Below, in pieces: positions 1 to 12,737 of a stretch of DNA of 64,000 bases (its first letter is position 1; each line of letters opens with the position of its first letter). The stretch is taken from the IMG/VR virus record IMGVR_UViG_3300027770_003399, positions 32,001-96,000 of that record. The stretch is one strand, 5' to 3'. The stretch is from a virus. The notes under the pieces were generated by a model that did no database searches, was not told where the DNA came from, and saw only the letters and a list, made by a program, of their open reading frames with translations. The position numbers were made by a program, and so were the translations under genes.

Positions 1-378
1 GGTACTCTTAAAGTTTTCCCTATTCTTATCGGCGGATGGGGCCACCCGCCCACCGTAGCCTTGATCAGCCTGATCGAGCAAGAAATAGACCGAATGTTTT
101 CCATCAACTACTAGAAAGTTTACAATGTCCCTCCCGTATACCATTGCAATTGTTAAAAGTATCAACTCTAAAAAGAAATGAATAAAATGAAAAATCGAAG
201 AAAAGTATCGAATTATGAGAAAGCCCAAGCCCTAATGGAAGAGGCCACCCGTATAGGTATGAACAAAAAGATAACCTATCAAAAATGCCTCTGCCCCATT
301 TGTATCGAAGCTCGGAGCAAGCCCCACAGTGTTAAAGTTGTAATAGAGTCTTGAGTTTAGTATCAATAGAAAAAAGGT

Positions 379-588
379 ATGTATATGAATATGTTTGAAG
401 TTGTTGGGTATCTGGCGATTGTTTGGTTGCTCGGTTGTATAGTTTTCCTTCCGTGTTATGCTATCGTATGGTATTTTGTTAGTATGAAAAATAATAAGAT
501 ACCGATGAGTAGTGATAGCGTGTGGGTTAATGGTGTTAATATTCACCATGATACCAATGGTAACATCTCTAGTTTTGCAAAAGATTAG
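379..588 (+). CDS. small putative membrane protein
   Basis: ORF track; one hydrophobic stretch (VVGYLAIVWLLGCIVFLPCYAIVWYFV). Confidence 0.4.
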   Translation: MYMNMFEVVGYLAIVWLLGCIVFLPCYAIVWYFVSMKNNKIPMSSDSVWVNGVNIHHDTNGNISSFAKD

Positions 589-645
589 ATATGCTACCTA
601 CGGGGGGATAGTGTACAAATGCTACCCCCCTGAGATACTAGGTCT

Positions 646-850
646 TAAACCCTTACAGCGTAAGGACTTACGACAAGCGGGGGCCCGCCCGAAAGTTGTA
701 AGTTGTTTGGTAGCAACGACTTAGGGCGAATGACCAGTGCAAATACCGTGCCAAACTTTGTGTAAAAGATTTATTTTGTTTTGGCATGAGAAATTATTCC
801 GAGAAATTTCTTTTTTAGCTATTGCAAAGGGTTAGAATAGTCGATATAAT
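646..850 (+). repeat. paired-palindrome/promoter element copy 1
   Basis: Palindrome A 646-670, palindrome B 699-723, TTGCAA 822-827, 17-bp spacer, TATAAT 845-850. Confidence 0.95.
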
Positions 851-894
851 ACTTAGAGAAGAAGAAAAGAAGAAAAAGAAAAAAGGAAAAGAAA

Positions 895-1125
895 ATGGAT
901 ATGGATAAAGATAGCATCGAAATGGAACTTAAATACAGAGGGTATTCTCTCGTTCCCAGACTTGCGGGAAATGATCCTCACCTCAAAGCGGAGAATCTTA
1001 GGTGGAGAGTAACTTCCAATCATATCGATTGGGATTGGGATTTTAAGACTCTGGAAGAAGTGGTAGAGTTTATCGGTAAGGAAAAACAAATATTCAAACA
1101 GGTATGTCGCAGGTTATCAAAATAA
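895..1125 (+). CDS. hypothetical early protein
   Basis: ORF directly after the element-1 promoter and a purine-rich leader. Confidence 0.6.
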   Translation: MDMDKDSIEMELKYRGYSLVPRLAGNDPHLKAENLRWRVTSNHIDWDWDFKTLEEVVEFIGKEKQIFKQVCRRLSK

Positions 1126-1130
1126 GGAGA

Positions 1131-1421
1131 ATGATTATGAATGATGGTATTGCAAAAAAGATGGGTGACCGGGGTTTCTTCCACATGATGGAAAAGATGA
1201 TGGTTAATGTTGATGGTGTTGTGCAAGAAGTTGTATGTCATGGTACATTTAACGATCAACTAATGTTAAGTTCATCCGATTGGTATGGTATCAAAATGGT
1301 TGATATTGATAAAATCAGATGTCGGCCTTATCATCCTAGCTTTGAGAGTATTGTTGATGGTGAGTCGGATCAAGACTATTACAACTATATCGACGCGATT
1401 GATCAGGCTTTTCGTGATTGA
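1131..1421 (+). CDS. hypothetical protein, paralog of 1759-2163
   Basis: AAGGAG RBS before ATG 1131; 47/71 aa identical to the next cassette's ORF by manual alignment. Confidence 0.75.
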   Translation: MIMNDGIAKKMGDRGFFHMMEKMMVNVDGVVQEVVCHGTFNDQLMLSSSDWYGIKMVDIDKIRCRPYHPSFESIVDGESDQDYYNYIDAIDQAFRD

Positions 1422-1504
1422 GCACAAACACTACCCCCTGTATGAGGGGGACACTCTTGTGGGGGGATAGTGTACAAACGCTACCCCCCTGAGACACTAG
1501 ATCT

Positions 1505-1708
1505 TAAACCCTTACAGCGTAAGGACTTACGATTTTGGGGCGGGCCCCCGCAAGCTGTAAGTTCTTTGATACCAACGACTTAGAGCAAGCGTCCAGAGCA
1601 AATGGTGTGCCAAACTTTGTACAAAAGATTTATTTTGTTTTGGCATGAGAAATTATTCCGATAAATTTCTTTTTAGCTATTGCAAAAGCTGAGAATGGAC
1701 GATATAGT
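1505..1708 (+). repeat. paired-palindrome/promoter element copy 2
   Basis: A 1505-1529, B 1558-1582, TTGCAA 1680-1685, 17 bp, TATAGT 1703-1708. Confidence 0.95.
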
Positions 1709-1758
1709 GCTTAGAGAGTAACAAGAGAAGAAAACGAAAATAAGAAAAGAGAAAAAAG

Positions 1759-2163
1759 ATGACAAAGAACAACGACGGTCTTGCAAAAAAGTTCGGTGAT
1801 GTGGGTTTCTTCCACATGTTGGAAAGAATGATGGTCACGATTGAGGGCGAGAAAGAGCAGGTTGTGTGCCACGGCACGTTCGGAAGCCAGTTGCTTCTGA
1901 GTTCTCAAAAATGGGATGGAATCAAGATGGTCGATGTCGATAGCATTGTCTGTCGCCCTTTTCATCCGGTCTTCACCAGCATTATGCTGGGAGATCAAAG
2001 CAAGGAAAATCTTCTGGAATACTGGCATTGGGTCGGTCTGCCTCAAGACCATCTCTATGTCGATTGGGACGTGATGTATTTGAGCGAAATGGAAGCGATC
2101 TGTATGGACGGACTACAAGAGGAGGACTACCCTCTTAATTGCGAAGCTGATTGGGGGAAGTAA
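1759..2163 (+). CDS. hypothetical protein, paralog of 1131-1421
   Basis: Shared GFFHM, VVCHGTF, GIKMVD and CRPxHP blocks. Confidence 0.75.
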   Translation: MTKNNDGLAKKFGDVGFFHMLERMMVTIEGEKEQVVCHGTFGSQLLLSSQKWDGIKMVDVDSIVCRPFHPVFTSIMLGDQSKENLLEYWHWVGLPQDHLYVDWDVMYLSEMEAICMDGLQEEDYPLNCEADWGK

Positions 2164-2364
2164 ACCCTTACAGCGTAAGAACTTAGAGCAAGCAGGGGCC
2201 CGCCCGAAAGTTGTAAGTTGTTTGATACCAACGACTTAGAGCAAACGCCCAGAGCAAATACCGTGCCAAACTTTGTACAAAAGAATTATTTTTATTTGGC
2301 ATGAGAAATTATTCCGATAAATTTCTTTTTTCCTATTGCAAAAGAATAGAATGGTCGATATAAT
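2161..2364 (+). repeat. paired-palindrome/promoter element copy 3
   Basis: A 2161-2185, B 2214-2238, TTGCAA 2336-2341, 17 bp, TATAAT 2359-2364. Confidence 0.95.
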
Positions 2365-2403
2365 GCTTAGAGAAGAAGAAATCACCACAACGGAGAGAAA
2401 AAC

Positions 2404-2622
2404 ATGTCACATTACGAAAACGACGATTATGAGTGTGCAGACGATCCTTTTTGTCCTCCTGCTTTCCCCATCTCTGATGAGTCGGACTATATGCCCGGCT
2501 ATGATGACGGAGCATATGATGCTGACGAGGTTGACGAAGATGAGTCTGACTATATGCCCGGATGGGATGATGGCGAATGGGATGATCATGAGAGTCTGTG
2601 CGGCGAAGAGGATTTCGCCTAG
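2404..2622 (+). CDS. small, extremely acidic protein
   Basis: 72 aa, D/E-rich, internal duplication DESDYMPG(Y/W)DDG; follows the element-3 promoter. Confidence 0.6.
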   Translation: MSHYENDDYECADDPFCPPAFPISDESDYMPGYDDGAYDADEVDEDESDYMPGWDDGEWDDHESLCGEEDFA

Positions 2623-2690
2623 TACCTGTGGGGGGATAGTGTACAAACGCTACCCCCCTATGAGGGTATGCCATTACCCAGGTATGCTTA

Positions 2691-2743
2691 TAGTCTCACC
2701 AAATCCACGGAGATTGACTAAATTGGCTATAGTCAGCGAGAAT
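2691..2743. repeat. hairpin-TAGTCAGCGAG repeat family, single copy
   Basis: Near-identical to the 64-bp unit at 6860-7045. Confidence 0.85.
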
Positions 2744-2768
2744 CACCCCCCCACAACATACTAGATCT

Positions 2769-2970
2769 TAAACCCTTACCCCGTAAGGAGTTACGAAAAG
2801 CTTTCGCCCGCCCGAAAGTTGTAAGTTGTTTGGTAGCAACGACTTAGAGCAAGCGTCCTGTGCAAATACTGTGCCAAACTTTCTCAAAAGAATTATTTTA
2901 TTTGGCATGGTAAATTATTTCCCGAATTTCTTTTTTTCCTATTGCAAAATCATAGGATGGTCGATATAAT
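2769..2970 (+). repeat. paired-palindrome/promoter element copy 4
   Basis: A 2769-2793, B 2822-2846, TTGCAA 2942-2947, 17 bp, TATAAT 2965-2970. Confidence 0.95.
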
Positions 2971-2997
2971 CTTTAGAGAAAAGAAAAGAGAAAAAAG

Positions 2998-3333
2998 ATG
3001 AACAAGATGGTAAGAAAAGCGAAACGATTGGCTCGCAAATGTTTTCTAGGGATCGCTATTCCCACCCTTAAAAAATCAGTCGATGGTGGTTGGGTCGAGT
3101 GTGAAAAAGTTTGGAAGTTTAACCGAATTTCTTTATTGTCTCCACCTACCAAAAAGACGAGTAAAAAGCAACTGGTAAACCCAGCAGCAGACTTGGCCTT
3201 TGTAAAAGCTGGTCGTCCCGGAAGCAAGGAACGAATGGAATCATATAAGCTTCAATACGAAGCTATTGAGGAGAAAGATGAATATGGCATGACTATTATT
3301 CCTGAAGGAAATATGTCGTTGTTTGCTGAATAG
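2998..3333 (+). CDS. hypothetical basic protein
   Basis: ORF after the element-4 promoter. Confidence 0.55.
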   Translation: MNKMVRKAKRLARKCFLGIAIPTLKKSVDGGWVECEKVWKFNRISLLSPPTKKTSKKQLVNPAADLAFVKAGRPGSKERMESYKLQYEAIEEKDEYGMTIIPEGNMSLFAE

Positions 3334-3382
3334 GGTATTGACAAGAAAATAATTTAAGGTATAACGGAAACAAGGAGAAATT

Positions 3383-3679
3383 ATGATGACAAAAGATGAG
3401 CTAGTACAGGTTGAGAGCTATAATGGTTGGAAAAATTATGAGACTTGGAATGTTTCCCTCTGGATAGTGAATGATGAGAGGTACTATAACATTGCCAAAA
3501 AAACACGAGATTATACATATTTTTTATATGCTCTTGAGAGGGAGTATCATCTACAGCCCTCATGGCACTGCGGATTACCGAACGGGCTTATCAAGAACAC
3601 AACTCCTGACGGTGTTTCTTGGATCGACCGTAGAATTGATGTTGGTGCGATCAATAAGATGCTAGGAGAATTGGCATAA
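3383..3679 (+). CDS. conserved phage hypothetical protein (NGWxNYETWNVxLW type)
   Basis: Own TTGACA(3338)-TATAAC(3360) promoter, AAGGAG RBS; motif recalled from phage hypotheticals. Confidence 0.7.
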   Translation: MMTKDELVQVESYNGWKNYETWNVSLWIVNDERYYNIAKKTRDYTYFLYALEREYHLQPSWHCGLPNGLIKNTTPDGVSWIDRRIDVGAINKMLGELA

Positions 3680-3837
3680 TGACTTATAAAGAATTGCTCG
3701 ATAGGTTACAAGAACTTGATCAAGAAAAGTTAAGTGGGCCTGTTAAGGTGTGGAATGATAATGATAGTCAATATATGGAACTGTTGACTTTCAACGATAT
3801 AGAAGTTTTTTGGGCCAGTTTTCCGACCATATTTTAG
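3679..3837 (+). CDS. small hypothetical protein (52 aa, below the ORF-track cutoff)
   Basis: ATG overlaps the upstream stop (TAATG); open frame to TAG 3835-3837. Confidence 0.45.
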   Translation: MTYKELLDRLQELDQEKLSGPVKVWNDNDSQYMELLTFNDIEVFWASFPTIF

Positions 3838-4119
3838 GGGAAATAGTATGATGATGGAAGTATATCTAGGTATTGTTTTTGTAACGTCTTTAATTGGGGC
3901 GTTTGGTATTGGTGTTACTGGTACTCTCTTGTATGTTATTTATAAGGAGGATAAGATTGGATATTGATAATATTGAAAATCTTTATGAGATGGAAGATAG
4001 TCTCTATCGTAATGTTGAAATGGAATGTCCTGAATATCTGGTAGGTGATAACTTGTGTGATTATAATTCAGAAACAGACAGTTATCATTATAAGTATTGA
4101 TTTATTATACTACCACCCG

Positions 4120-4324
4120 TAAACCCTTTGGTCGTAAGAACTTAGGGCAAGCGGGGGCCCGCCCGGAAGTTGTAAGTTCTTTGGCAGCAACGACTTAGAG
4201 CGAATGCCCCGTGCAAATACTGTGCCAAACTTTGTACAAAAGATTTATTTTGTTTTGGCATGAGAAATTATTCCGAGAAATTTCTTTTTTAGCTATTGCA
4301 AAAGATTAGAAGTGTCGATATAAT
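4120..4324 (+). repeat. paired-palindrome/promoter element copy 5
   Basis: A 4120-4144, B 4173-4197, TTGCAA 4296-4301, 17 bp, TATAAT 4319-4324. Confidence 0.95.
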
Positions 4325-4366
4325 ACATGGAGAAGAAGAAAACAAGAAAAGGAAAAGGAAAAGAAA

Positions 4367-4756
4367 ATGTACGATCTACAAAAAGCGGTCAGAGAAAAAG
4401 AGAGAGCAATGAAAGCACTAGAATATGCACAAAACGAATTCGAGATTTGTGAGGCTCAGTTGGAAAGTGTGCTAAAAGACATGAAGAAAAATTGGATAGC
4501 GGCGGAGAAAAAATGGGCGAGTAGTGTTCTGAATCTCGTAGAGGCTCGCAAAGCTGCCAGTGCTGCGGCTCTTGTGCGAAGCGTCGGAATCCCAATAGTA
4601 ACGTCTCAAAGCGTTAAAGATTGGCAGCAAGAGGTAATAGAAACTAGGAACGATGTTGCAAGAGAACACAATGCCTACCTATTGGCCTGCGAATGTGCGG
4701 GGGTTGTCCGAGAGGGCAAAATCAATGAGGGAACGGGTCTTGCTTTATTGTCCTGA
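4367..4756 (+). CDS. hypothetical coiled-coil protein
   Basis: Helical heptad-like composition; follows the element-5 promoter. Confidence 0.6.
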   Translation: MYDLQKAVREKERAMKALEYAQNEFEICEAQLESVLKDMKKNWIAAEKKWASSVLNLVEARKAASAAALVRSVGIPIVTSQSVKDWQQEVIETRNDVAREHNAYLLACECAGVVREGKINEGTGLALLS

Positions 4757-4800
4757 GTCTAAAGAGTTGTAATTAAAGAAAAAGAAAAGAGAAAAAGAAA

Positions 4801-5208
4801 ATGAAACTAGAAACATACGAAGCAGCAATAGCAGCGATTGAGAAAACTCGAAACAAAGTATCCAAGAGAGTGTCGGCCAATACTACCCTCTACAAAATTG
4901 TGGCTGTGGATGGTACGGTAACTGTGGGAGTAAAACTCTATGATACATTTGTGGTCATCATGCACCCGGATCATTCGGTATTATTTTCGGGAGGTTATAA
5001 AACCAGCACTACAAAAAAGAGAATCAATAACTATAGCTTGTGTTCGATATTTCAAAAAGACTTTGAATGGTTTGTGAAAGATGGTACCCCTTTTGAGGAG
5101 GGGATCGTAGTAGATCGTGGGGGGGCATTGCTATCTTTGACTCCTCAGAGTTTAGAGTGTGCATCATTTATACTCCCGCCCCTAACTCCTTTGGTCATAG
5201 GAACTTAG
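4801..5208 (+). CDS. conserved phage hypothetical protein
   Basis: GGYKTSTTKKRIN motif recalled from phage hypotheticals; 3' end reads into element copy 6. Confidence 0.65.
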   Translation: MKLETYEAAIAAIEKTRNKVSKRVSANTTLYKIVAVDGTVTVGVKLYDTFVVIMHPDHSVLFSGGYKTSTTKKRINNYSLCSIFQKDFEWFVKDGTPFEEGIVVDRGGALLSLTPQSLECASFILPPLTPLVIGT

Positions 5209-5351
5209 GGCAAGCGGGCCCCCGCCCGGAAGTTGTAAGTTGTTTGATACCAACGACTTAGAGCGAATACCCAGTGCAAATGGTGTGCCAAAAAAATATT
5301 TTAATAAATTTCTTTTTAGCTATTGCAAAAGAATAGAAGAGACGATATAAT
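5183..5351 (+). repeat. paired-palindrome/promoter element copy 6 (short variant)
   Basis: A 5183-5207, B 5236-5260, TTGCAA 5323-5328, 17 bp, TATAAT 5346-5351. Confidence 0.95.
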
Positions 5352-5391
5352 ACGTAGAGAAGAAGAAATCACACCACAGGGAGAGAAAAAC

Positions 5392-5661
5392 GTGTTCAAT
5401 ACGCCATATGCTTTGTCGGATCGTACAACTCGGACGATTACCGCAGTGGACATGATCGAGTTTAGTGGGCTGTCCACTAGCGGTAGTAAATTCAAAATAG
5501 TCACTAAACTTGAGGATGCCCAGCGTTGGGTCAACGGAGAGTTCATTCAAAATTGTTTCCCTTATCTCAATGCTGATGAGCGTGAAATTCTGATGACGGG
5601 AATCGACGCTCAGACTTGGGAAACCATGTTAGTAGGAATGCAGGAGGAAGAGGAAGTATGA
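5392..5661 (+). CDS. conserved phage hypothetical protein (FPYLxADEREILMTGI type)
   Basis: GTG start after a GGGAG RBS; the ORF-track start at 5323 lies inside the promoter. Confidence 0.65.
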   Translation: MFNTPYALSDRTTRTITAVDMIEFSGLSTSGSKFKIVTKLEDAQRWVNGEFIQNCFPYLNADEREILMTGIDAQTWETMLVGMQEEEEV

Positions 5662-5704
5662 ATACCGATACCTAATTGCAAAAGAACAGAAGAGATGATA
5701 TAAT

Positions 5705-5825
5705 ACATATATTCCGGTACCATCCCGAATACGGGTGGTGGAGCGAATTAACGCCACGGCGCTACACCCGTGTCTTATCACTAATCAGGTAAGATCGCTG
5801 AATTAACAGCCGGACACCGCACACA
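5705..5825 (+). ncRNA. candidate structured ncRNA 1
   Basis: Non-coding tract after TTGCAA(5676)-17-TATAAT(5699); nested stems TCCGG/CCGGA, CGGGTG/CACCCG, TCTTA/TAAGA, GCTG/CAGC; 3' motif shared with 6848-6862. Confidence 0.45.
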
Positions 5826-5849
5826 GAGGAAAAGAAAAAAGGAAAAAAA

Positions 5850-6482
5850 ATGAAACCGCTCACCGAACGACAAACTGCTATCTACGAATTCATTCGAGAG
5901 AAGATTCAGTCTCGCGGATATGGTCCGACCATCAGGGAAATCGGTGATGCTTTCCAAATTCATTCACTCAATGGAGTGATATGCCACCTAAAAGCTCTGG
6001 AGAAAAAGGGGTGGATTACACGTGGAAAGAAAATGTCAAGAGCAATCCAACTCCTTGGTGAGCCACCGATGGTATATACGACTCAGCATAAAGTTGCTGT
6101 TGCCATGATTGAATCGACGTATGAAGCCTATAAAGACTGGAAAAGTCATGATAAGGAATATTTGACCGACGAATTAAATAACTATAATGACAACATTCCA
6201 GTATGGCGAGATATGGATGATAACACCAAGTGCGCAGCGATTGAATACGTATACAACAAGCGTGATACTATTGAGCTTCATTCTGATATTGTTGAATCTT
6301 GGGTACAAGCAACAGCGTATTTTATGTTATATAATTTTTGTAGTGATATTACAAATGGAGAAGAGCCAGATTTGGAAATGTTTTTTGATGATCTGGATTT
6401 TATGTTGGACGAAGAAATTCTCAACGATAGTGATGTTCAAAAGATAATGGGAATAAGTTCAGATTTTACAAAAAAGTTCTAA
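5850..6482 (+). CDS. LexA-type winged-HTH DNA-binding domain fused to an unrelated acidic C-terminal domain
   Basis: LTERQ..IYEFI...I..RGYGPTIREIG..F.I.S.NGV..HLKALEKKG.I.R....SRAI matches the LexA N-terminal domain; no S24 peptidase motifs follow. Confidence 0.85.
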   Translation: MKPLTERQTAIYEFIREKIQSRGYGPTIREIGDAFQIHSLNGVICHLKALEKKGWITRGKKMSRAIQLLGEPPMVYTTQHKVAVAMIESTYEAYKDWKSHDKEYLTDELNNYNDNIPVWRDMDDNTKCAAIEYVYNKRDTIELHSDIVESWVQATAYFMLYNFCSDITNGEEPDLEMFFDDLDFMLDEEILNDSDVQKIMGISSDFTKKF

Positions 6483-6511
6483 TGAAACTACGCTCCTCTT
6501 TCTTCTCTCCG

Positions 6512-6680
6512 TAAACCCTTTGATCGTAAGAACTTAGGGCGAGCGGGGGCCCGCCCGAAAGTTGTAAGTCCTTTGATAGCAACGACTTAGAGCAAACACC
6601 CAGAGCAAATACTGTGCCAAAAAAATATTTTAATAAATTTCTTTTTCCCTATTGCAAAAGAACAGAAGAGACGATATAAT
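6512..6680 (+). repeat. paired-palindrome/promoter element copy 7 (short variant)
   Basis: A 6512-6536, B 6565-6589, TTGCAA 6652-6657, 17 bp, TATAAT 6675-6680. Confidence 0.95.
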
Positions 6681-6684
6681 ACAT

Positions 6685-6862
6685 ACATAGGCCAGTAACT
6701 GCGAGAGGGAAGCAGGGCGACGAGATTAAAAAATCTCTAAGGACCAGTGCCGTGGGCAGTTCCAGTATTGATGCTTTCGAGCAGGGAGAAATTTCCCTAG
6801 ATACTGATTATAGAACCGGATCGTAAATGGTTCGCTGGTAACAATACAACAGCCGGATACCG
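6685..6862 (+). ncRNA. candidate structured ncRNA 2
   Basis: No ORF after a consensus promoter; stems CTGC/GCAG, GAGATT/AATCTC, TGCC/GGCA, CAGTAT/ATACTG, TGCT-TTCG-AGCA, AGGGA/TCCCT, GAACC/GGTTC, GCTG/CAGC. Confidence 0.55.
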
Positions 6863-7045
6863 TTTAGTCTCACCAAATCCACGGGGATTGGCTAAATTGG
6901 CTATAGTCAGCGAGAATGCGGGGCCGTTTAGTCTCACCAAATCCACGGGGATTGGCTAAATTGGCTATAGTCAGCGAGAATGCGGGGCCGTTTAGTCTCA
7001 CCAAATCCACGGGGATTGGCTAAATTGGTTATAGTCAGCGAGAAT
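6860..7045. repeat. tandem repeat, about 2.9 x 64 bp (hairpin-TAGTCAGCGAG family)
   Basis: Units start at 6860, 6924 and 6988 and are almost identical. Confidence 0.95.
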
Positions 7046-7066
7046 CCCCCCGAACATACTAGATCT

Positions 7067-7247
7067 TAAACCCTTACCACGTAAGGACTTACGAAAAGCT
7101 TTCGCCCGCCCGGAAGTTGTAAGTTCTTTGATACCAACGACTTAGGGCGAACTCGCTGTGCAAATACTGTGCCAAACTTTGTACAAAAGATTTTCACAAT
7201 AATTCATGCTAGAGCCTATTGACAACCGATAATAGGTATGGTATAAC
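7067..7247 (+). repeat. paired-palindrome/promoter element copy 8
   Basis: A 7067-7091, B 7120-7144, TTGACA 7219-7224, 17 bp, TATAAC 7242-7247. Confidence 0.95.
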
Positions 7248-7272
7248 GATGGAAAGAGAAAGAGGAGAAAGA

Positions 7273-7479
7273 ATGTTCCCAACAAAATTTATGGATCACT
7301 CGGCCTACATGAAGAAGGTCAAACGAATGACTCAGGCTGAATTGGAATATACCATCAAAGATTGTAAAGAGGTATTGGCCGTGTGGGTTGACCACCCCAA
7401 TTGTGGGTACTATTCAGATGAGATATGTTACTGTTCGACGGAACTACACAGAAGGAAAGTAAAGGCCCAAAATGTATAA
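7273..7479 (+). CDS. hypothetical protein
   Basis: AGGAG RBS before ATG 7273; the track start 7219 is the -35 box. Confidence 0.6.
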   Translation: MFPTKFMDHSAYMKKVKRMTQAELEYTIKDCKEVLAVWVDHPNCGYYSDEICYCSTELHRRKVKAQNV

Positions 7480-7864
7480 AGTAAGATTTCACCTCGGTGC
7501 TGGTAAACATTACAAGCATTGGCAGATTCGGTCGGAATGCGGAGTGTCGTATTACTGGCCTATCGAGGTTCAACTCTTTTTGTTTAACTGTGTGCTAAAA
7601 AGCAATAAGAAGAAAGCATACAAGGTATATGCTGAACAGGTGCGTGACGTGTGTGGTTGGGTCGAGTGTGACAATGTTAAAGTCGAAGATATGACTTTTG
7701 CATATGAGCCTATTACAGTGGAGGGATTGCCAAGGATCACATATGATCCGAAGGTAACGCCGTATTGGAAGATCGAGGGAGATAGCGATAATTATGAAAT
7801 GTTAAGAGTACAAAGAGTAGTATCAAATGGTAATAAATTATTTATGAGAGAGAGCTATGTATGA
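7472..7864 (+). CDS. hypothetical protein
   Basis: ORF track; overlaps the upstream stop. Confidence 0.6.
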   Translation: MYKVRFHLGAGKHYKHWQIRSECGVSYYWPIEVQLFLFNCVLKSNKKKAYKVYAEQVRDVCGWVECDNVKVEDMTFAYEPITVEGLPRITYDPKVTPYWKIEGDSDNYEMLRVQRVVSNGNKLFMRESYV

Positions 7865-7936
7865 TCCCGTAGCTCAAATGGATAGAGCAACAACCTTCTA
7901 AGTTGTGGGTTGCAAGTTCAAGTCTTGCCGGGGTTA
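7863..7936 (+). tRNA. tRNA-Arg(TCT)
   Basis: Cloverleaf; anticodon arm ACAAC-CTTCTAA-GTTGT; TTCAAGT T-loop; no encoded CCA. Confidence 0.93.
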
Positions 7937-8009
7937 TTGACAAAGTGTTTTTTTGTGGTAAAATGTCGTAGTGTTCTAAGTTGTTCGATTGTTCAAAGGG
8001 AGAGTTTTT

Positions 8010-8402
8010 ATGAGTAGTATGGAATTGGCTTATGTTGTTGGTGTTTTTAGTTTGACCTCTGGCCTTATTGGTGGGTTGGTCGCTATGTATCTGAATGGGA
8101 CTTATATTCCTCTGAAGGAAGCCCATCCCGGTGATGTTGTGAATTTTGTTTATCTCCAACCTGCTGCTGGACAACCCGAAAGGTATCTGGCTAAAGTTGT
8201 TGGAGTAAGTAAGTTGACGCAAGAACAAATTGCTCGACTTGATAAGAAAAGTTATTATCGATCTAAGGATGTTGCTTTCAAGAGAACAGAGCACCTTATC
8301 AAATGTGTTATGAAAGACGGTACGTTGAGAAATTTCTATGCGGAACGAACAGTAGATTGTAAAAAAGTCCCGTTCGGAGGAATTTTCCACAAAGTATCTT
8401 GA
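8010..8402 (+). CDS. hypothetical protein with an N-terminal membrane anchor
   Basis: GGGAG RBS; hydrophobic N-terminus. Confidence 0.6.
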   Translation: MSSMELAYVVGVFSLTSGLIGGLVAMYLNGTYIPLKEAHPGDVVNFVYLQPAAGQPERYLAKVVGVSKLTQEQIARLDKKSYYRSKDVAFKRTEHLIKCVMKDGTLRNFYAERTVDCKKVPFGGIFHKVS

Positions 8403-8416
8403 TACTCCCTGCCTCG

Positions 8417-8554
8417 CAAACCCTCTGTGCGTAAGCACTTAGGGCGAGCGGGCCCCCGCCCGGAAGTTGCAAGTTCTTATGGGGTAAGACTTTGCATCAT
8501 ATTATTTTTTCCTAAAGATTTCCTCTTGACAAGTCGATTTATATCGTATACAAT
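8417..8554 (+). repeat. paired-palindrome/promoter element copy 9 (degenerate)
   Basis: A 8417-8441, B 8470-8494, TTGACA 8526-8531, 17 bp, TACAAT 8549-8554. Confidence 0.85.
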
Positions 8555-8580
8555 AATCAGACACAAAGGGAGAAAATCTA

Positions 8581-9291
8581 ATGCAGTCAAGTAAGGGAAA
8601 TGATAAACTCGGAACGGGTTGTAGAGTTGTTAGCAGAGCGGTTGGTGATAGCTGCCCGCCAACGTGCGATTTTCTAGGCATAGATTGTTATGCTGAGGGT
8701 ACCGAGCGAATTTTTAAGGCTTCGCGAGCGGTGGGCTTGCGAAATATGATCACCGAAGCGGGCAAAATCCGAAGTTTGATTCTTACCACTATCGAAGAAA
8801 AAAGATCATTACGCTGGCACGAACGTGGCGACCTGCTGAAAAACGGGCAACTAGACTTGGAATATATCGGCAATATTGTAAAGGCTTGTGAAAGTATTCT
8901 AGCCGACGGTATCGCATTACCTCATATGTGGATGTATTCTCATGTTTATGATAGCCGTGTTGTTGATATGCTAGGAAAGTATATTGTACTGTATGCTAGT
9001 ATCCACAATAAAGAGCATAAAGAGCAAGCTATAAAAGCGGGGTATACTCTATTCGCATGGTGTGATACCTTAAAAGTTTATAGTCCCAAAAAGCCTCGCG
9101 GCAAAAAAGCCGTGGAATGGAAAAAAGCTCTTCCTAAGCTGGCCATAATTGACGGTGACAAATATGTTACCTGCCCAGAAATGCGACGGGGTCGAGAGGA
9201 GGGTGGGGTAACTTGCACCGGGACAAAAGATTCGATACCATGTAATTTGTGTGTTAAGGGCTTGGCGAATGTTTTATTTTTGAACCACTAA
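8581..9291 (+). CDS. GP88-like Cys-rich phage protein
   Basis: CPPTC...CYA, RWHERGD and a C-terminal CP...TC...C..C, as in GP88-family proteins. Confidence 0.7.
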   Translation: MQSSKGNDKLGTGCRVVSRAVGDSCPPTCDFLGIDCYAEGTERIFKASRAVGLRNMITEAGKIRSLILTTIEEKRSLRWHERGDLLKNGQLDLEYIGNIVKACESILADGIALPHMWMYSHVYDSRVVDMLGKYIVLYASIHNKEHKEQAIKAGYTLFAWCDTLKVYSPKKPRGKKAVEWKKALPKLAIIDGDKYVTCPEMRRGREEGGVTCTGTKDSIPCNLCVKGLANVLFLNH

Positions 9292-9469
9292 AAGAAAGAG
9301 TGTCTATGAATTATAGTATTGAAACGTCTGAAAGTATACAGGAAGATATACTTACTTGTATTGAGGGGTTTTCTGTCAAGGGGAAGATTACAGATATTGA
9401 ACGGCTGAATGATGCTTTATGTCAGATTATTGTAGACAGAAGGAAGTTATTAAATAAAGGAACTTTGTA

Positions 9470-9808
9470 ATGGGAAAATACTATGTTACTTGTGGAACAT
9501 TGGAAGTTATAGTTCAGGCAGATAATCCCCAACATGCAGTTTGTACTGCATTAGACCAAGCAAATAAAAATGACGAATTAGATGATGGTATAGTTGTAGA
9601 TGAAAGAGGTTTTAGGTATCTTGATCCAGTAAAGGTAGCTAGAAACGAAGCTCCGCCAATGTCTGATGTAGTAAAATGGTTATGGGAAAATGATAATATA
9701 GAAAAATCGGAAAATGTTATGTTCTTTGTACCACAACATTATTTTAGCTTGGAAAATTTTATGGAAGTTATGGGTGATGATGATGATGATGATTTTGAAG
9801 ATGAATAA
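9470..9808 (+). CDS. hypothetical protein with an acidic tail
   Basis: ORF track; AAGGA RBS. Confidence 0.55.
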   Translation: MGKYYVTCGTLEVIVQADNPQHAVCTALDQANKNDELDDGIVVDERGFRYLDPVKVARNEAPPMSDVVKWLWENDNIEKSENVMFFVPQHYFSLENFMEVMGDDDDDDFEDE

Positions 9809-9821
9809 ATAGTGGTGGCCC

Positions 9822-10013
9822 TAAGTCCTTTGTGCTTAAACACTTAGGACAAACGGGCGGGGCCCCGAAATTTGTAAGTTCTTTAGTACCAACGACTTAC
9901 GACTCTTAAAATATTTTTATTTTTTCTAAAAGAATTATTGTTATTTGGCACGGGAAATTATTCCGAAAAATTTCTAAACTAGGGCTTGCATTAAGTCGAT
10001 GATATGGTAGAAT
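9822..10013 (+). repeat. paired-palindrome/promoter element copy 10
   Basis: A 9822-9846, B 9875-9899, TTGCAT 9986-9991, TAGAAT 10008-10013. Confidence 0.9.
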
Positions 10014-10063
10014 CATGTTATGGGAACGAATGACGGTAAACACTTTTTGAAAGGGATGATGCT

Positions 10064-11008
10064 ATGAGTCATGCAGTAGAGACGATGTTTTTTGTTCGAG
10101 AGACCCCTTGGCACGGGCTTGGGGTAAAGTTGGAGGAAGCACCGACTGTGTCGGAAGCGATTGTCGCTGCTGGTCTCGATTGGACTGTAGGGTTGAAAGA
10201 CCTGTTCACCGCCGAAGGTCAACCAGTTCCAGCAAAGGCGACGTATCGTGAGACGGACGGGTCTATTCTGGGTGTTGTTGGCCCACGGTATAGCCCGCTC
10301 CAAAATGCTTCGGCATTTGACTGGTTTCAGCCTTTTATCGACTCCGGCGAAGTATCGTTGCATACTGCCGGTAGTTTGAACGAGGGTTGCAAGGTATGGG
10401 TGTTGGCCGAGTTAAATCGTGAAAAGTCCGAGATCGTGAAGGGTGACGAGATTGCAAAGTTTGTACTCTTGTCAAATTCTCACGATGGTACGACCGCGAT
10501 TAGGGTCGGGTATACCCCGATCAGGGTGGTATGTGCAAACACGATGGCGATGGCCCATAGTTGCAAGGAATCTAAGCTGTTGCGTGTTCGACATACAAAG
10601 TCGAGTGCTCAAAAGCTCGAAGATATACGAGGCATTATGAATAACATAAACGCCGAGTTCGAGGCAACTGCGGAACAGTACAAATATCTTGCAAGCAAGA
10701 TGTTCAATAGTGCTGACCTTCTTAAGTATGTTAAGATCATTCTGGACATTGAATTGTCTACTCCGAGTTCTGAGATTAAAACCAGAACAAAGAATATCAT
10801 GAATGATATACTATCAAGGGTCGAGGGGCCAAAGCAAACGATGGCGGGTGTTAATGGTACATGGTGGGCCGCTTATAATGGGGTTAATGAGTACCTCAAT
10901 TATGAGAAGGGTCGAAGTGCTAATAACAGACTGGACTCGTTGTGGTTCGGGCTGAATGCTAACAGTAACAAAAGAGCTTTTGATACTGCACTAGCACTGG
11001 CTAGCTAA
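10064..11008 (+). CDS. DUF932 / TIGR03299-type phage-plasmid protein
   Basis: MSHAVETM...PWHGLG, F.PLQN..AF, ETAGSL-like HTAGSL..G..VW and NSHDG....R...TPIRVVC.NT motifs. Confidence 0.9.
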   Translation: MSHAVETMFFVRETPWHGLGVKLEEAPTVSEAIVAAGLDWTVGLKDLFTAEGQPVPAKATYRETDGSILGVVGPRYSPLQNASAFDWFQPFIDSGEVSLHTAGSLNEGCKVWVLAELNREKSEIVKGDEIAKFVLLSNSHDGTTAIRVGYTPIRVVCANTMAMAHSCKESKLLRVRHTKSSAQKLEDIRGIMNNINAEFEATAEQYKYLASKMFNSADLLKYVKIILDIELSTPSSEIKTRTKNIMNDILSRVEGPKQTMAGVNGTWWAAYNGVNEYLNYEKGRSANNRLDSLWFGLNANSNKRAFDTALALAS

Positions 11009-11013
11009 TTCGA

Positions 11014-11087
11014 GGGGGTGTAGCTCAACTGGTTAGAGCGTCGGCTTGTCACGCCGAAGGTTGCGGGTTCGAGTCCCGTCACTCCCG
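11014..11087 (+). tRNA. tRNA-Asp(GTC)
   Basis: Cloverleaf; TCGGC-TTGTCAC-GCCGA anticodon arm; TTCGAGT T-loop; no CCA. Confidence 0.95.
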
Positions 11088-11112
11088 CTTAATTTCACAA
11101 AACCGAGAGTCG

Positions 11113-11253
11113 TAAACCCTTACCACCAAAGGACTTACGATTTTCGGGCGGGGGCAAAATTTTTGTAAGTTGTTGTGGGATAAGGACTTATGAAAATTAT
11201 CTCAATTTCTTCAGACTTAGGCTCTTGACATTTGCTCTAAGTGTCGATATACT
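11113..11253 (+). repeat. paired-palindrome/promoter element copy 11
   Basis: A 11113-11137, B 11166-11190, TTGACA 11225-11230, 17 bp, TATACT 11248-11253. Confidence 0.9.
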
Positions 11254-11463
11254 AGTAATGGAAGTTGTTGGTGTGTATGGGTTTAGGAAGATTTCTAAAA
11301 TGACTTATGGAAAGGGGATCGGTCGTAAGTCTAAATCTTACAAAATTAAATATCTAATCTTACCCATCTTAACATATCGAGATCAAGTCTCATAACAGGC
11401 CACTCTACCCGGCCACAAATTTTAACCATAGTCAGGATTTTTCAGAGGCCCCTTTTGTTATTG

Positions 11464-11520
11464 CTAATCCCCCCGGATTGGTGGGCTTGGTGATAGTCAG
11501 CGAGATTCGTAGACCCTTTT
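11464..11520. repeat. hairpin-TAGTCAGCGAG family, single copy
   Basis: AATCC-CCCC-GGATT, then TAGTCAGCGAG at 11494. Confidence 0.85.
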
Positions 11521-11538
11521 ATTTTAAGGAATTATTAA

Positions 11539-11886
11539 ATGAATGATCTTGGAAAGAGACTGTCAGCTAAAGAGATGGACATACTGTTGGATCGACTCTC
11601 GATGGGAGAAAATATCAGCGAGTCGATAGAGAGGGATGTCGATCAGGAGGCGGAGAGTCTATATAATCTTATAAAAGATACAAGAAGGCTCCCACCGCAC
11701 CTAACAGAATCGAGTAAAGAGATTCTATTAAATGCAATAGAATGTTCTACGGTCTGTGATATGTATGGAAAGGCCAATAGGCGGGTGGTATTTAGTTTAG
11801 TAGATAAAATGGTAGCTGCTGGGATTGATGATCATATTTATATCCCTAATTATGGTCGGAGGCCGTGTCCATTCGGCTGTTCCTGA
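11539..11886 (+). CDS. hypothetical protein
   Basis: ORF track; AAGGA RBS. Confidence 0.55.
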   Translation: MNDLGKRLSAKEMDILLDRLSMGENISESIERDVDQEAESLYNLIKDTRRLPPHLTESSKEILLNAIECSTVCDMYGKANRRVVFSLVDKMVAAGIDDHIYIPNYGRRPCPFGCS

Positions 11887-11950
11887 ATGTGATCTTCCTG
11901 CTACACAAAACCACCTTTAGGACTTACCAACATGACATATTGTATTTCCT

Positions 11951-12000
11951 TATCTATCAAGATTGCTGGCCTTGATGATAGTCAGCGAGATTCGTGGCCC
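11951..12000. repeat. hairpin-TAGTCAGCGAG family, single copy
   Basis: ATCT-ATCA-AGAT, then TAGTCAGCGAG at 11979. Confidence 0.8.
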
Positions 12001-12137
12001 TCTTCAGATCGAACTTGTGACTCAATCTTACAAGTTGGCCCCACAAAATAAATTAAAGTGGGTCTTGACAAGTGTCGATGAGTATGGTATATTGGGATTG
12101 TGGATAAAAATTTATTATGCAAAGGAAAGGTTTAGAT

Positions 12138-12311
12138 ATGTCTAATAGTGCTGTTTTTACTTTGAGTGGTGGTCTTCTGGATGTTGTTAGTATTCCTAAG
12201 GGTATGGAAGTTATTGTAAGGGATTATGATCAGGATGAGGTTGACCCAGAACTCTTGTGTATTGATAAAGATGGTGGGAGATATATTGAGATTGTATATG
12301 ATGGGGAATGA
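12138..12311 (+). CDS. small hypothetical protein
   Basis: Follows a TTGACA(12065)-17-TATATT promoter; AGG RBS. Confidence 0.55.
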   Translation: MSNSAVFTLSGGLLDVVSIPKGMEVIVRDYDQDEVDPELLCIDKDGGRYIEIVYDGE

Positions 12312-12353
12312 TAGTTGTATAATAAATTGGTCTAATAATTAAATTAAAGGGGA

Positions 12354-12737
12354 ATGATTATGGGAATGGGTGCTAGTCCTTGCTCTGGTTGGGTTATTGG
12401 TTATAATGATCTTAAAAAGATTTGTCCAAAAGAAGTAGACCTTGTCGAAGGCGATGAGGAATTTGAGGATTGGGGTGAGGTATCTAGGGCATTTGAGTTC
12501 GATGAATTACCCGATAGTATTAAAAAATCTGTAGAAGATTTGGTTGGGAAATTCGGAATAAATACCAACCTAACCCTAAGTCTGGGGTTCTATGATGAAG
12601 AGGGTGGAGATAGATATGATCAGGTAGACTCTCACGAAGGCTGCGTCTTCTTTGTTGATGGGATGGTTTCGCTAACGCCCGCTGGGAAGAAGTTCAAGGA
12701 TGTTGTAAGAGAGCGACTTTGGACACAATATGGATAA
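12354..12737 (+). CDS. hypothetical acidic protein
   Basis: ORF track; GGGGA RBS. Confidence 0.6.
   Translation: MIMGMGASPCSGWVIGYNDLKKICPKEVDLVEGDEEFEDWGEVSRAFEFDELPDSIKKSVEDLVGKFGINTNLTLSLGFYDEEGGDRYDQVDSHEGCVFFVDGMVSLTPAGKKFKDVVRERLWTQYG

Follow-up and report, generated by a model that had tools for sequence, protein, structure and literature searches.

A paired-palindrome DNA element, probably a protein-docking site, upstream of early promoters in uncultured phages

Pairs of 25-bp palindromes, always 53 bp apart, recur between the early genes of this phage genome, raising the question of what they do there and why their geometry is kept so strictly. A sequence-only reading had proposed cooperative double binding sites for a dimer of dimers, acting in cassette shuffling, early-region silencing, or DNA entry or organisation near a genome end. 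We consider it likely that they are protein-docking elements acting on early transcription units. The fuller account, in which a 78-bp element acting at the DNA level is bound by a bending protein of the host, of the IHF/HU type, and controls or insulates early promoters, is probable as a whole, and the naming of a host IHF/HU-type protein as the putative binder is tentative.

Anatomy and distribution of the unit

The 122,120-bp record contains 15 pairs, all with an offset of exactly 53 bp. Eleven are in the window (the whole 64,000-nt stretch analysed, whose position 1 is genome position 32001) and lie exactly where the sequence-only reading had placed them (Table 1); the other four, starting at genome positions 28587, 29845, 30431 and 31515, extend the array upstream of the window, beyond what that reading covered. 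No pair was found past window position 11190, as had been noted, and the 15 are confined to one block of ca. 15 kb (genome 28.6–43.2 kb), the remainder of the record being without any. The unit is formed by two 25-bp palindromes, pal1 and pal2, flanking a 28-bp linker (78 bp in total), and the GC-rich linker centre already reported is present in every copy. Ten of the window pairs fit the consensus TAAGTnnTT-N7-AAnnACTTA with 0–3 mismatches per palindrome, the pair at 8417/8470 being the most degenerate. Allowing up to three mismatches, the window holds 29 matches, versus 13.7 ± 3.7 in shuffled sequences; 20 of the 29 form pairs, and the other nine are at chance level. The 7-bp centres of the palindromes vary among the 15 copies (e.g., TGGTAGC, TGATACC, TGGCAGC, ACAGCGT and TGGTCGT). 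All units share one orientation, and each is situated between the end of the preceding gene and the next sigma70-type promoter of the + strand, at 0–30 nt from the gene end except where a hairpin or a 64-nt repeat intervenes.

Table 1. Units, promoters and sigma54-type motifs in the window (window coordinates)
Feature	Position	Strand	Remarks
Double-palindrome unit	646..723	+	pal1 646-670, linker 671-698, pal2 699-723
Double-palindrome unit	1505..1582	+	linker core inverted relative to most copies
Double-palindrome unit	2161..2238	+	first TAA is the stop codon of ORF 1759-2163
Double-palindrome unit	2769..2846	+	linker variant CTTTCG..CGAAAG
Double-palindrome unit	4120..4197	+	
Double-palindrome unit	5183..5260	+	pal1 degenerate, overlapped by the 3′ end of ORF 4801-5208
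Double-palindrome unit	6512..6589	+	
Double-palindrome unit	7067..7144	+	preceded by three tandem 64-nt repeats
Degenerate double-palindrome unit	8417..8494	+	4 mismatches per palindrome, spacing still 53
Double-palindrome unit	9822..9899	+	upstream of DUF932 gene; linker core inverted
Last double-palindrome unit	11113..11190	+	25 nt past tRNA-Asp
Sigma70-type promoter	822..850	+	TTGCAA-17-TATAAT; served by unit 646
Sigma70-type promoter	1680-1708	+	equivalent
Sigma70-type promoter	2336-2364	+	equivalent
Sigma70-type promoter	2942-2970	+	equivalent
Sigma70-type promoter	4296-4324	+	equivalent
Sigma70-type promoter	5323-5351	+	equivalent
Sigma70-type promoter	6652-6680	+	equivalent
Sigma70-type promoter	7219-7247	+	equivalent
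Sigma70-type promoter	8526-8554	+	equivalent
Sigma70-type promoter	9986-10013	+	equivalent
Sigma70-type promoter	11225-11253	+	equivalent
Sigma54-type -24/-12 motif	739..753	-	TGGCAC-N5-TTGC; 15 bp right of pal2, pointing into the unit
Sigma54-type motif	1598-1612	-	
Sigma54-type motif	2254-2268	-	
Sigma54-type motif	2862-2876	-	
Sigma54-type motif	4213-4227	-	
Sigma54-type motif	5276-5290	-	
Sigma54-type motif	6605-6619	-	
Sigma54-type motif	7160-7174	-	

The 78-bp unit is present in more than 100 uncultured phage contigs, including 77 of the 118 fetched by the single-palindrome pattern and 11 of the 12 fetched only through their DUF932 protein. The unit upstream of the DUF932 gene occupies the orthologous position in 11/12 relatives. 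The element was seen on phage-like contigs only, isolate chromosomes being without it, and each of ten other mapped records has, as here, one single array. The spacing is constant within each genome, yet lineages differ, with values from 41 to 58 bp; variable spacing in related phages was an outcome that the sequence-only reading had named as refuting it, and it is borne out in half, between lineages but not within genomes. A universal rule of five helical turns on the same face, as suggested by the 53 bp of this genome, thus fails; that spacings of 41–58 bp do not hold both sites on one face also counts against the docking-element reading.

The element is polar, with four half-sites that differ consistently and a linker with the position-specific consensus GGrCaAg..GGCsGGCC..TTyGaCG. 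The promoter-proximal palindrome is strong, and the distal one is weaker and stands at a length-constrained distance. Within the palindromes, TAA at positions 1–3 and TTA at 23–25 are conserved in nearly 100 % of cases and T8, T9, A17 and A18 in at least 94 %, forming TT and AA steps 9 bp apart. Element-bearing genomes have as few as 13–21 ORFs in common with this genome, and one of them carries an unrelated virion module. The element, for which we found no description in the literature searched, is conserved better than almost any protein of these phages, and it could serve as a practical marker by which to locate early regions and the borders of cassettes on phage contigs from metagenomes.

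Origin of the dyad symmetry and register with the promoter

A palindrome can be conserved as a DNA site or as the stem of a hairpin, and the mirror positions of the repeats distinguish between the two. Among 520 distinct palindromes, pairing between the free mirror positions does not depart from chance, and G-T combinations are no commoner than A-C. Similarly, in 95 oriented units the pairing cells amounted to 66.7 %, against 67.1 % in shuffles, with a covariation score of 0.134 versus 0.135. Individual copies are predicted to fold differently as RNA, their z-scores being modest (-0.5 to -2.2), and terminator-like sites in window positions 1–14500 numbered 10, for 10.6 expected; in the same interval no intrinsic terminators (GC-rich hairpin plus U-tract) were found systematically at the elements. 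The dyad symmetry stems from conserved half-sites and not from base pairing. The lack of covariation, in the palindromes and in the linker alike, together with the inconsistent folds and the absence of terminator enrichment, indicates that the palindromes are sequence-specific DNA sites. This sustains the core of the proposal of cooperative double binding sites, in that they are putative protein sites specified by sequence, and the strong and weak pair at a constrained distance fits paired or cooperative occupancy.

Promoters of the type TTGCAA/TTGACA-16/17-TATAAT are found downstream of 14 of the 15 units, and some promoters, such as that at 5676-5704, have no element. The gaps between unit and -35 box are 31, 34, 62, 62, 74, 86, 95 or 97–98 bp, in agreement with the range of 31–98 bp given earlier. 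From this range it had been concluded that spacing to the promoter is not conserved; distances do vary, yet they roughly fit the helical register of the relatives, where the gaps from pal2 to the -35 box cluster at 20, 30–31, 41 and 52–53 bp. With similar spacers collapsed into 74 clusters, the register of the relatives gave R 0.65 (p ~1e-10) with a best period of 11.1–11.2 bp, and the observed value was reached by 0 of 2000 random sets, although even after clustering these statistics overstate independence, because the copies are related by descent within and between genomes. The seven gap classes of this genome deviate by -1.7 to +3.3 bp from that register (R ~0.66); this genome tests the register weakly, since most units are 95–98 bp away from the -35 box and further conserved motifs intervene. 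A role in early-gene control, one of the functions first proposed, fits this promoter register; if correct, the element would constitute a compact, portable promoter module tunable by spacing classes and by register steps of ~11 bp.

Candidate binding proteins

The published IHF consensus (PMC1874591) has WATCAA near the centre, TTR 4 bp on, and a pair of AA steps at a distance of 9 bp. Mirrored about its W, it yields a pattern of 25 bp that can be overlaid on the palindrome, whose layout is TAA-N4-TTGA-N3-TCAA-N4-TTA. This symmetrised-IHF layout makes a DNA-bending protein of the IHF/HU type the foremost candidate for the binder. No Bac_DNA_binding (IHF/HU, DNABII) gene was found in this record or in eight other element-bearing records; considering also the few shared ORFs and the unrelated virion module, the constant partner is more likely a host protein. 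The half-sites TCAA-N4-TTA and the flexible TT/AA steps, set 9 bp from each other around the centre, are as in IHF sites, and the TTR feature is present as well. The element also lies 55–110 bp upstream of a strong phage promoter, as in IHF-assisted promoters, with the helical-phase dependence expected for a bend. IHF acts upstream of one such strong promoter, lambda pL (Giladi et al., 1998, as listed in PMC1784095).

Nevertheless, canonical IHF sites are asymmetric with a 5′ A-tract, whereas the palindromes are symmetric and have none; they also differ in their fixed pairing round a GC-rich spacer and in extra conserved GT/AC positions, which here fall outside the E. coli IHF consensus. The WATC part is mostly missing in the spacing class of this genome: pal2 reads TA(C/G)CAACGACTTA, one mismatch from the WATCAA part, and in pal1 the match is limited to the AA and TTA parts. 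The full consensus occurs in 17 of 36 palindromes of other spacing classes, against 11 of 288 in the 52/53-bp class; the latter, to which this genome belongs, is not enriched for it. Separately, a fixed strong and weak pair suggests cooperative binding of an oligomer, which is atypical of IHF and speaks against it as the binder.

In the docking-element reading, each 25-bp palindrome would be a dyad site for a dimeric protein, putatively a host-supplied DNA-bending protein of the IHF/HU type. The stronger proximal palindrome would be kept in helical register with the -35 box, and the bend might bring the upstream DNA, made up of the GC-rich linker and the weaker distal palindrome, closer to RNA polymerase or turn it away, and so tune the promoter with whichever sign the transcriptional effect may have. 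The bound complex, just past the preceding stop codon, may in addition serve as an insulating mark at the boundary between units. Uncultured freshwater and marine phages of a large, abundant group would then control their host-takeover genes through a modular element of DNA architecture, and naming the binding protein would also indicate the host range of the group. A parallel is TF1, an HU-family DNA-bending protein that has preferred sites near the early promoters of Bacillus phage SPO1 and modulates early transcription. TF1 is phage-encoded and needs hydroxymethyluracil DNA; the nine element-bearing records, in contrast, are without a DNABII gene.

The units could instead be operators bound by a dimer-of-dimers regulator that the phage itself encodes and either makes early or brings in with the virion; occupying the strong and weak palindromes cooperatively, it would shut off or time early promoters, which corresponds to the early-region silencing first proposed. 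Strong and weak sites with a lineage-specific linker length suggest co-evolution with a bridging protein, the element is confined to phage DNA, and the promoter register suits repression as well as activation. However, none of the phage DNA-binding proteins follows the distribution of the element. Five complete relatives lack the LexA-like early gene (window 5850-6482), and only six genes are common to five element-bearing genomes (Gmd, a GT4 glycosyltransferase, Ogg-HhH-like, DUF5754-like, rIIA and rIIB); the DUF5754-like domain also occurs in phages without the element, and G025, a 100 % complete record with seven units in the fetched stretch, has no Ogg-like gene. We thus regard a phage regulator as unlikely, if worth keeping in view.

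Sigma54-type motifs, cassette turnover and other repeat systems

The sequence TGGCAC-N5-TTGC has 12 copies in the genome (four of them upstream of the window), all on the minus strand at 15 bp from pal2, and none elsewhere; 12/15 units carry it and 3/15 do not. With the predicted sigma54 transcript start at the pal2 edge, leftward sigma54 transcripts would run antisense to the early gene before the element, and the element might serve as their leader, as a downstream enhancer or as a roadblock. The same geometry, with an inward motif 9–19 bp from the edge, is seen in ~18 of 140 oriented elements of relatives, but ~85 % of these elements are without it. Enhancers are usually upstream of sigma54 promoters: the UAS consists of ATPase dyad sites ~80–150 bp upstream of the -24/-12 promoter, whereas here the element is downstream of the motif, and no enhancer-binding ATPase (PF00158) was found in the record. 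An RNA leader is also at odds with the absence of covariation and of a consistent fold. Lying between the element and the sigma70 promoter, the motif resembles an optional inserted module, and we judge a primary sigma54 role very unlikely. A bolder combination, itself quite improbable, is that the unit is a self-contained boundary device in which two sharp protein-induced bends around a stiff GC clamp would topologically isolate the cassette and set the geometry of the next promoter. Coupled here to a back-to-back sigma54 promoter firing into the unit, it could let host sigma54 silence early genes by antisense transcription or collision, as a sigma70/sigma54 bidirectional switch repeated 12 times. 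The link makes the use of host sigma54 by a lytic phage directly testable.

Hairpins at 3′ ends of RNA or in single-stranded DNA (a terminator, processing site or stabiliser, similar to REP/BIME elements or to the stem-loops of PeSL cassettes) might be expected from units that directly follow stop codons, from palindromes able to fold, and from the short linker hairpins of some lineages (e.g., GACCCC-TTCG-GGGTC in the 58-bp class). This is extremely unlikely given the mirror-pair, fold and terminator results above; moreover, among Rfam families tRNA alone was matched, and no Y1 transposase (PF01797) was found in the record.

Equally hard to credit is that the units bind nothing and are mere linker homology by which cassettes recombine, a purely PeSL-type role, or signals for DNA entry or packaging at a genome end. 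The array is indeed the more plastic region, sharing 8 of 31 genes with relative G004, against 71 of 159 for the rest of the genome, and 3 of 31 against 47 of 159 with G005, and it contains paralogous adjacent cassettes (family D8). However, position-specific conservation, polarity, exact linker length and promoter register are kept in genomes that share almost no genes. The genome-end role first proposed is contradicted by the array being internal here and at the record end in only two of the ten other records; those two record ends may be arbitrary.

Site-specific recombination sites mobilising cassettes (tyrosine-recombinase core or attC-like) can be practically dismissed: the inverted 9-bp arms about a 7-bp centre, the cassette-like gene units and the cargo, patchily shared and reordered among relatives, recall such sites, but Phage_integrase (PF00589) is absent from this record, where the sequence-only reading had suggested looking for it, and from five complete relatives, resolvase (PF00239) and Y1 transposase were not found in the record, the differing 7-bp centres are incompatible with strand exchange between copies, and rigid doublets keep orthologous positions and their phase to promoters. 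The missing recombinase, the variable centres and the internal array leave both the recombinase-site and genome-end readings unsupported. Of the cassette shuffling proposed earlier, the turnover around the units is real and looks like a by-product of homologous recombination: element and promoter, being repeated ~15 times, would act as homology for duplication, loss and shuffling of cassettes. Shuffling via the repeats would be a side effect, not site-specific recombination.

Among known systems, the promoter-early stem-loop (PeSL) cassettes of T4-type phages (Arbiol et al., 2010, PMC2839356; Comeau et al., 2014, PMC4122927) are likewise repeated composite non-coding modules between small, mostly orphan early genes of a plastic region, with a strong sigma70-type promoter that has an AT-rich upstream part, and with cargo that is shuffled, gained and lost between relatives. 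In this genome the array genes are less shared than the rest, and the promoter component of PeSL is present. The stem-loop terminator that defines its upstream part is not; a separate G6...C6 (polyG...polyC) hairpin lies just upstream of only 5 of the 15 units, and what is conserved instead is two dyad sites, rigidly paired and not covarying, that are joined by a GC-rich linker and phased helically to the promoter. The virion genes of these phages are not T4-like.

REP/BIME elements are hairpin-forming repeats of enterobacterial chromosomes associated with RAYT transposases, and some BIMEs bind IHF. They share with the units the paired imperfect palindromes, the defined linker, the extragenic position after genes and the high copy number, and differ from them in that the units show no covariation, have no Y1 transposase, occur in a phage setting only and are tied to promoters.

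Extent and setting of the paired palindromes

A search of the window for TAAGTnnTT-N7-AAnnACTTA, allowing up to three mismatches, returned 29 palindromes, against 13.7 ± 3.7 in shuffled sequences. Twenty of these form ten pairs with an offset of exactly 53 bp, and an eleventh pair is degenerate, with four mismatches in each palindrome. Each 78-bp unit comprises a distal palindrome (pal1), a 28-bp linker and a promoter-proximal palindrome (pal2). The sequence-only reading had located these pairs and their offset correctly, but the array it described was cut by the edge of the window and lacked four pairs situated 5′ of it. The source record (122,120 bp, linear, 86 % complete) contains 15 pairs in total, all in the same orientation, between 28.6 and 43.2 kb of the genome, and no further pair elsewhere in its sequence. 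The coordinates of the units and of neighbouring features are collected in the table.

The unit is the left portion of a ca. 250-bp repeat and starts 0–30 nt past the end of the preceding plus-strand gene or tRNA where nothing intervenes, the distance being greater if a G6...C6 hairpin or 64-nt repeat separates the two. The first TAA of unit 2161 is the stop codon of the preceding gene, and unit 11113 comes after tRNA-Asp. Two tRNA genes are found inside the array as separate cassettes, which run directly into a promoter or a double-palindrome unit, and in several relatives units are likewise placed after tRNA 3′ ends. The G6...C6 hairpins (GGGGGGATAGTGTACAAACGCTACCCCCC), none of which is followed by a T-run, are directly 5′ of several units and resemble the polyG/polyC stem-loops of the promoter-early stem-loop (PeSL) cassettes of T4-type phages. 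A second repeat family, composed of 64-nt units with a small hairpin (CCAATCC...GGATTGG type) and then GATAGTCAGCGAGA, runs on past the end of the array.

Coordinates of the paired palindromes and of features in and around the array
Feature	Position	Strand	Numbering
Paired palindromes (starts of pal1/pal2)	646/699, 1505/1558, 2161/2214, 2769/2822, 4120/4173, 5183/5236, 6512/6565, 7067/7120, 9822/9875, 11113/11166		window
Degenerate pair	8417/8470		window
Pairs 5′ of the window	28587, 29845, 30431, 31515		genome
Sigma54-type motifs (predicted)	739-753, 1598-1612, 2254-2268, 2862-2876	-	window
Sigma54-type motifs (predicted)	5276-5290, 4213-4227, 6605-6619, 7160-7174	-	window
Sigma54-type motifs (predicted)	4 more 5′ of the window		
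Two dyads between sigma54-type motif and -35	757-811; equivalents e.g. 1616-1670, 4231-4285		window
G6...C6 hairpins	602-630, 1461-1489, 2630-2658; 3 units 5′ of the window		window
64-nt repeats	2686-2749, 6860-7051 (three tandem copies), 11450-11513, 11926-12010, 13863-14070		window
tRNA-Arg (TCT)	7862-7937		window
tRNA-Asp (GTC)	11014-11088		window
Element-less promoter copy and GC-rich leader of the LexA-like gene	5676-5849		window
LexA-like early gene	5850-6482		window
Cassette with promoter but no ORF	6512-6860 (promoter and GC-rich, structured-looking part 6652-6860)		window
Paralogous cassette genes	1104-1421, 1759-2163		window
Small ORF with internal repeat	2476-2592		window
Ogg-HhH-like gene	30449-31195		window
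DUF5754-like gene	36020-36547		window

An exact-pattern scan of IMG/VR gave 118 stretches among the matches listed, 77 of which contain paired units whose linker is GC-rich, amounting to at least 77 contigs and at least 281 units. A second sample of 12 contigs, picked only through their DUF932 protein (66–74 % identity) and not through the DNA motif, contained arrays in 11 cases, on the gene strand and including an orthologously placed unit 5′ of DUF932; compared with these relatives, there are ca. 55 extra bp between element and promoter here. The spacing, which had been taken as an invariant 53 bp, is indeed constant within each contig (occasionally ±1) but depends on the lineage, being 41, 42, 46–53 or 58 bp, with 53 bp as the commonest value. 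Since no indels occur across the 15 diverged linkers of this genome, linker length is under selection within each genome.

Ten other records were mapped over their whole or near-whole length (112–233 kb, eight of them 95–100 % complete), and each has one array of 6–20 kb. The array is internal here and in eight of the ten, which speaks against the proposed location near a genome end; in the other two (relatives G005 and G008) it is at a record end that may be arbitrary. In a scan of 185,579 species genomes, real units appeared only on short contigs of 35–48 % GC, mis-binned into MAGs from many unrelated phyla, and isolate chromosomes contained none; therefore, the element is phage-specific. 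No cultured relative was found: the large terminase subunit shares no more than 26 % identity with that of any GenBank phage, and neither a megablast of the region nor DUF7227 gave a match among GenBank phages.

Element-bearing genomes have almost no genes in common. The ORFs shared with this genome number 126 in relative G004, 76 in G005, 21 in G008 and 13 in G007; the capsid, portal and terminase genes are 66–85 % identical to those of G004, and have no detectable counterpart in G005. The genomes are mosaic, the 76 common ORFs of G005 coming from early and replication regions.

Half-site symmetry and promoter register

With units oriented by their downstream promoter, the consensus of the 53-bp class is TAA(A/G)(T/C)CCTT-N7-AAGGACTTA for pal1, GGrCaAg-nn-cGGCsGGCC-nn-TTyGaCG for the linker and TAAGTsCTT-N7-AACGACTTA for pal2, which is the best match of the two palindromes. 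The weakest half-site is consistently the outer distal one, reading TAAACCCTT in 11 of the 15 units here. The GC core of the linker, GGCGGGCC or GGCCCGCC, is found in both orientations (flipped in this genome at 1505, 9822 and 11113), and matches to the core words among relatives occur in the two orientations at ca. 52:19. Flipping is expected because pal1 and pal2 are mutual inverted repeats, allowing exchange between them, and the presence of the core in either orientation suggests that the linker acts largely as a symmetric or compositional spacer.

The possibility that the palindromes fold as hairpins in RNA or single-stranded DNA was rejected on the basis of the lack of covariation, inconsistent folds, a terminator scan and an Rfam search. 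Among 520 distinct palindromes from relatives, pairing at the free mirror positions (6/20, 7/19, 10/16 and 12/14) was not above that of shuffled partners, and G-T was no commoner than A-C; the linker has position-specific conservation and no mirror covariation. When 95 promoter-oriented units were aligned under a three-hairpin model, 66.7 % of cells were paired, versus 67.1 % in shuffles, with a covariation score of 0.134 versus 0.135. RNA folds of both strands of three units differed from copy to copy (z-scores -0.5 to -2.2), 10 terminator-like sites were observed against 10.6 expected, and Rfam identified tRNAs and no other family. The lack of covariation, the inconsistent folds and the number of terminators at expectation therefore indicate that the symmetry arises from conserved half-sites. 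Such symmetry is the probable signature of a dimeric DNA-binding protein.

The unit is followed by a sigma70-type promoter (TTGCAA or TTGACA, 16–17 bp, TATAAT-like), with gaps from unit to -35 box of 31, 34, 62, 62, 74, 86, 95 or 97–98 bp in this genome. Among relatives, 143 of the 281 units are flanked on one side, and not on the other, by a top-5 % sigma70 promoter pointing away from the unit, and the gaps from pal2 to the -35 box are quantised at 19–21, 29–31, 40–42, 52–53, ca. 62 and ca. 73 bp. After collapsing similar spacers into 74 clusters, the Rayleigh R for gaps of up to 60 bp was 0.65 (p ~1e-10), the copies being related by descent, so that their independence is limited; the best register period was 11.1–11.2 bp, and none of 2,000 random sets reached the observed value. 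The other spacing classes offer few data (gaps of 9, 18–20 and 47–50 bp), but these show a similar register; pal2 thus seems to be the palindrome phased to the promoter, whereas the phase of pal1 varies by class. The seven gap classes of this genome deviate by -1.7 to +3.3 bp from the register of the relatives, taking an 11-bp period. The earlier view of an unconserved spacing to the promoter thus holds for its length, but not for its helical phase.

In many relatives (e.g., contigs L010, L017 and L020) the motif GCCGATA(A/C)T comes immediately 3′ of the -35 box, inside the promoter spacer; promoters in the window read GxCGATATAAT, with CGATA adjoining the -10 box. A possible role of the CGATA-type motif is that of a second recognition element of early promoters. 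There is also an element-less promoter copy, followed by the ca. 130-nt GC-rich leader of the LexA-like gene, and one cassette with a promoter but no ORF, whose GC-rich part had no Rfam match.

Candidate binding proteins and proposed mechanism

The IHF consensus mirrored about its W reads YAA-N4-TTGAT-W-ATCAA-N4-TTR (25 bp), and the palindrome consensus TAA-GTCs-TTGA-NNN-TCAA-sGAC-TTA superimposes on it with zero offset. The most conserved palindrome positions are the TT/AA steps (8–9 and 17–18) and the terminal TAA/TTA; in the lambda H′ complex, one of the two kinks falls at the AA of WATCAA. The IHF consensus has WATCAA near the site centre and TTR four bp further 3′, and the two AA steps of the site, nine bp apart, are the points of proline intercalation (PMC1874591). 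In the 41–50 and 58-bp classes the palindrome centre is often nTA, resulting in a perfect TATCAA-N4-TTA; the full IHF consensus is present in 17 of the 36 palindromes of these classes. The WATC part is not enriched in the 52/53 class (11 matches in 288 palindromes); in this genome, pal2 has one mismatch to the IHF consensus and pal1 fits its AA and TTA parts only.

With no Bac_DNA_binding gene in this record or in eight other element-bearing records, few genes in common and inconsistent phage candidates, a host protein of the IHF/HU type would thus be the simplest constant partner; alternatively, the binder may be an unrecognised phage protein. Only six genes are common to five element-bearing genomes (this one and four others), coding for a GDP-mannose dehydratase, a GT4 glycosyltransferase, an Ogg-HhH-like protein, a DUF5754-like protein, rIIA and rIIB. 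The Ogg-HhH-like protein (PF22175) has 344 metagenomic cluster representatives and zero matches in 50,697 GenBank phage records; among the 12 most complete element-bearing records (83–100 % complete), its gene occurs in 10 (41–75 % identity) and is missing from G025 (100 % complete, with 7 units in its fetched stretch) and G019 (89 %). The gene is a marker of the phage group, but its product was rejected as binder, since its presence tracks the element imperfectly and common descent confounds the association. The LexA-like early protein carries a winged-helix DNA-binding domain of the LexA type (PF01726, E = 2e-21) without a peptidase domain, and C-terminal homologues in several relatives, but was discarded because the DNA-binding domain is absent from five complete relatives. 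The DUF5754-like protein (175 aa; AlphaFold model poor, pLDDT 54) has more than 8,000 metagenomic cluster representatives, the best 120 of which show 61–93 % identity over their full length; its C-terminal domain, also present in Pelagibacter, Roseobacter and Flavobacterium phages and in a Nitrosopumilaceae virus, is widespread in element-less phages such as Kyanoviridae phage C48C1, which led to its rejection as binder. A phage-encoded IHF or HU was dismissed, none being present in the nine element-bearing records.

With a host protein of the IHF/HU type as candidate, a dimer would bend the DNA at pal2, which is ca. 68 + 11n bp 5′ of the transcription start; pal1, the weaker palindrome located another 53 bp 5′, would be occupied as well. 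Bending at pal2 would determine how the upstream DNA runs with respect to RNA polymerase, in the manner of IHF at lambda pL (Giladi 1998, cited in PMC1784095). Being directly 3′ of the previous stop codon, the complex would delimit the transcription unit; as linker length varies with lineage, the phase between pal1 and pal2 would be lineage-specific. The anatomy and statistics of the element are observed; protein binding, DNA bending and the direction of the effect on transcription are inferred.

In 12 of the 15 units, pal2 is followed after 15 bp by GCAA-N5-GTGCCA, which on the minus strand reads TGGCAC-N5-TTGC, a predicted consensus sigma54 -24/-12 promoter. These are the only sigma54-type motifs in the 122-kb record; they are back-to-back with the sigma70 promoter and aimed into the element and the preceding gene, and the same geometry is seen in ca. 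18 of 140 oriented elements from relatives. Assuming the usual -12 spacing, the predicted start would be ca. 3 nt outside pal2 and transcripts would enter the element. A gene for an enhancer-binding ATPase was not found in the record. The interval from the sigma54-type motif to the -35 box contains two further dyads, CTTTGTACAAAG and AGAAATT-N9-AATTTCT beside a TTTGGCAT/C box. Both dyads are missing from the short units 5183 and 6512, and they may be operators, for instance for the LexA-like protein.

Recombination and cassette shuffling

The suggested resemblance to tyrosine-recombinase core sites was not borne out: no tyrosine recombinase was found in this record or in five complete relatives, and the 7-bp palindrome centres differ between copies. 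Neither a serine recombinase (resolvase) nor a Y1 transposase was found in this record, and a role as recombinase site was rejected. The order of the backbone (5323, LexA-like, 7472, DUF7227, 9470, DUF932) is kept among relatives, whereas ORFs 7219, 7989 and 19016–19409 change place, and neighbouring cassettes are paralogous (family D8). Array genes are less often in common with relatives than other genes (8/31 vs 71/159 for G004, and 3/31 vs 47/159 for G005). This reshuffling of cargo fits a by-product of homologous exchange of the PeSL type, by which cassettes are shuffled (PMC2839356, PMC4122927). The two paralogous cassette genes listed in the table show 79 % identity over their first 77 nt, and an acidic repeat of 63 nt is found inside the small ORF.
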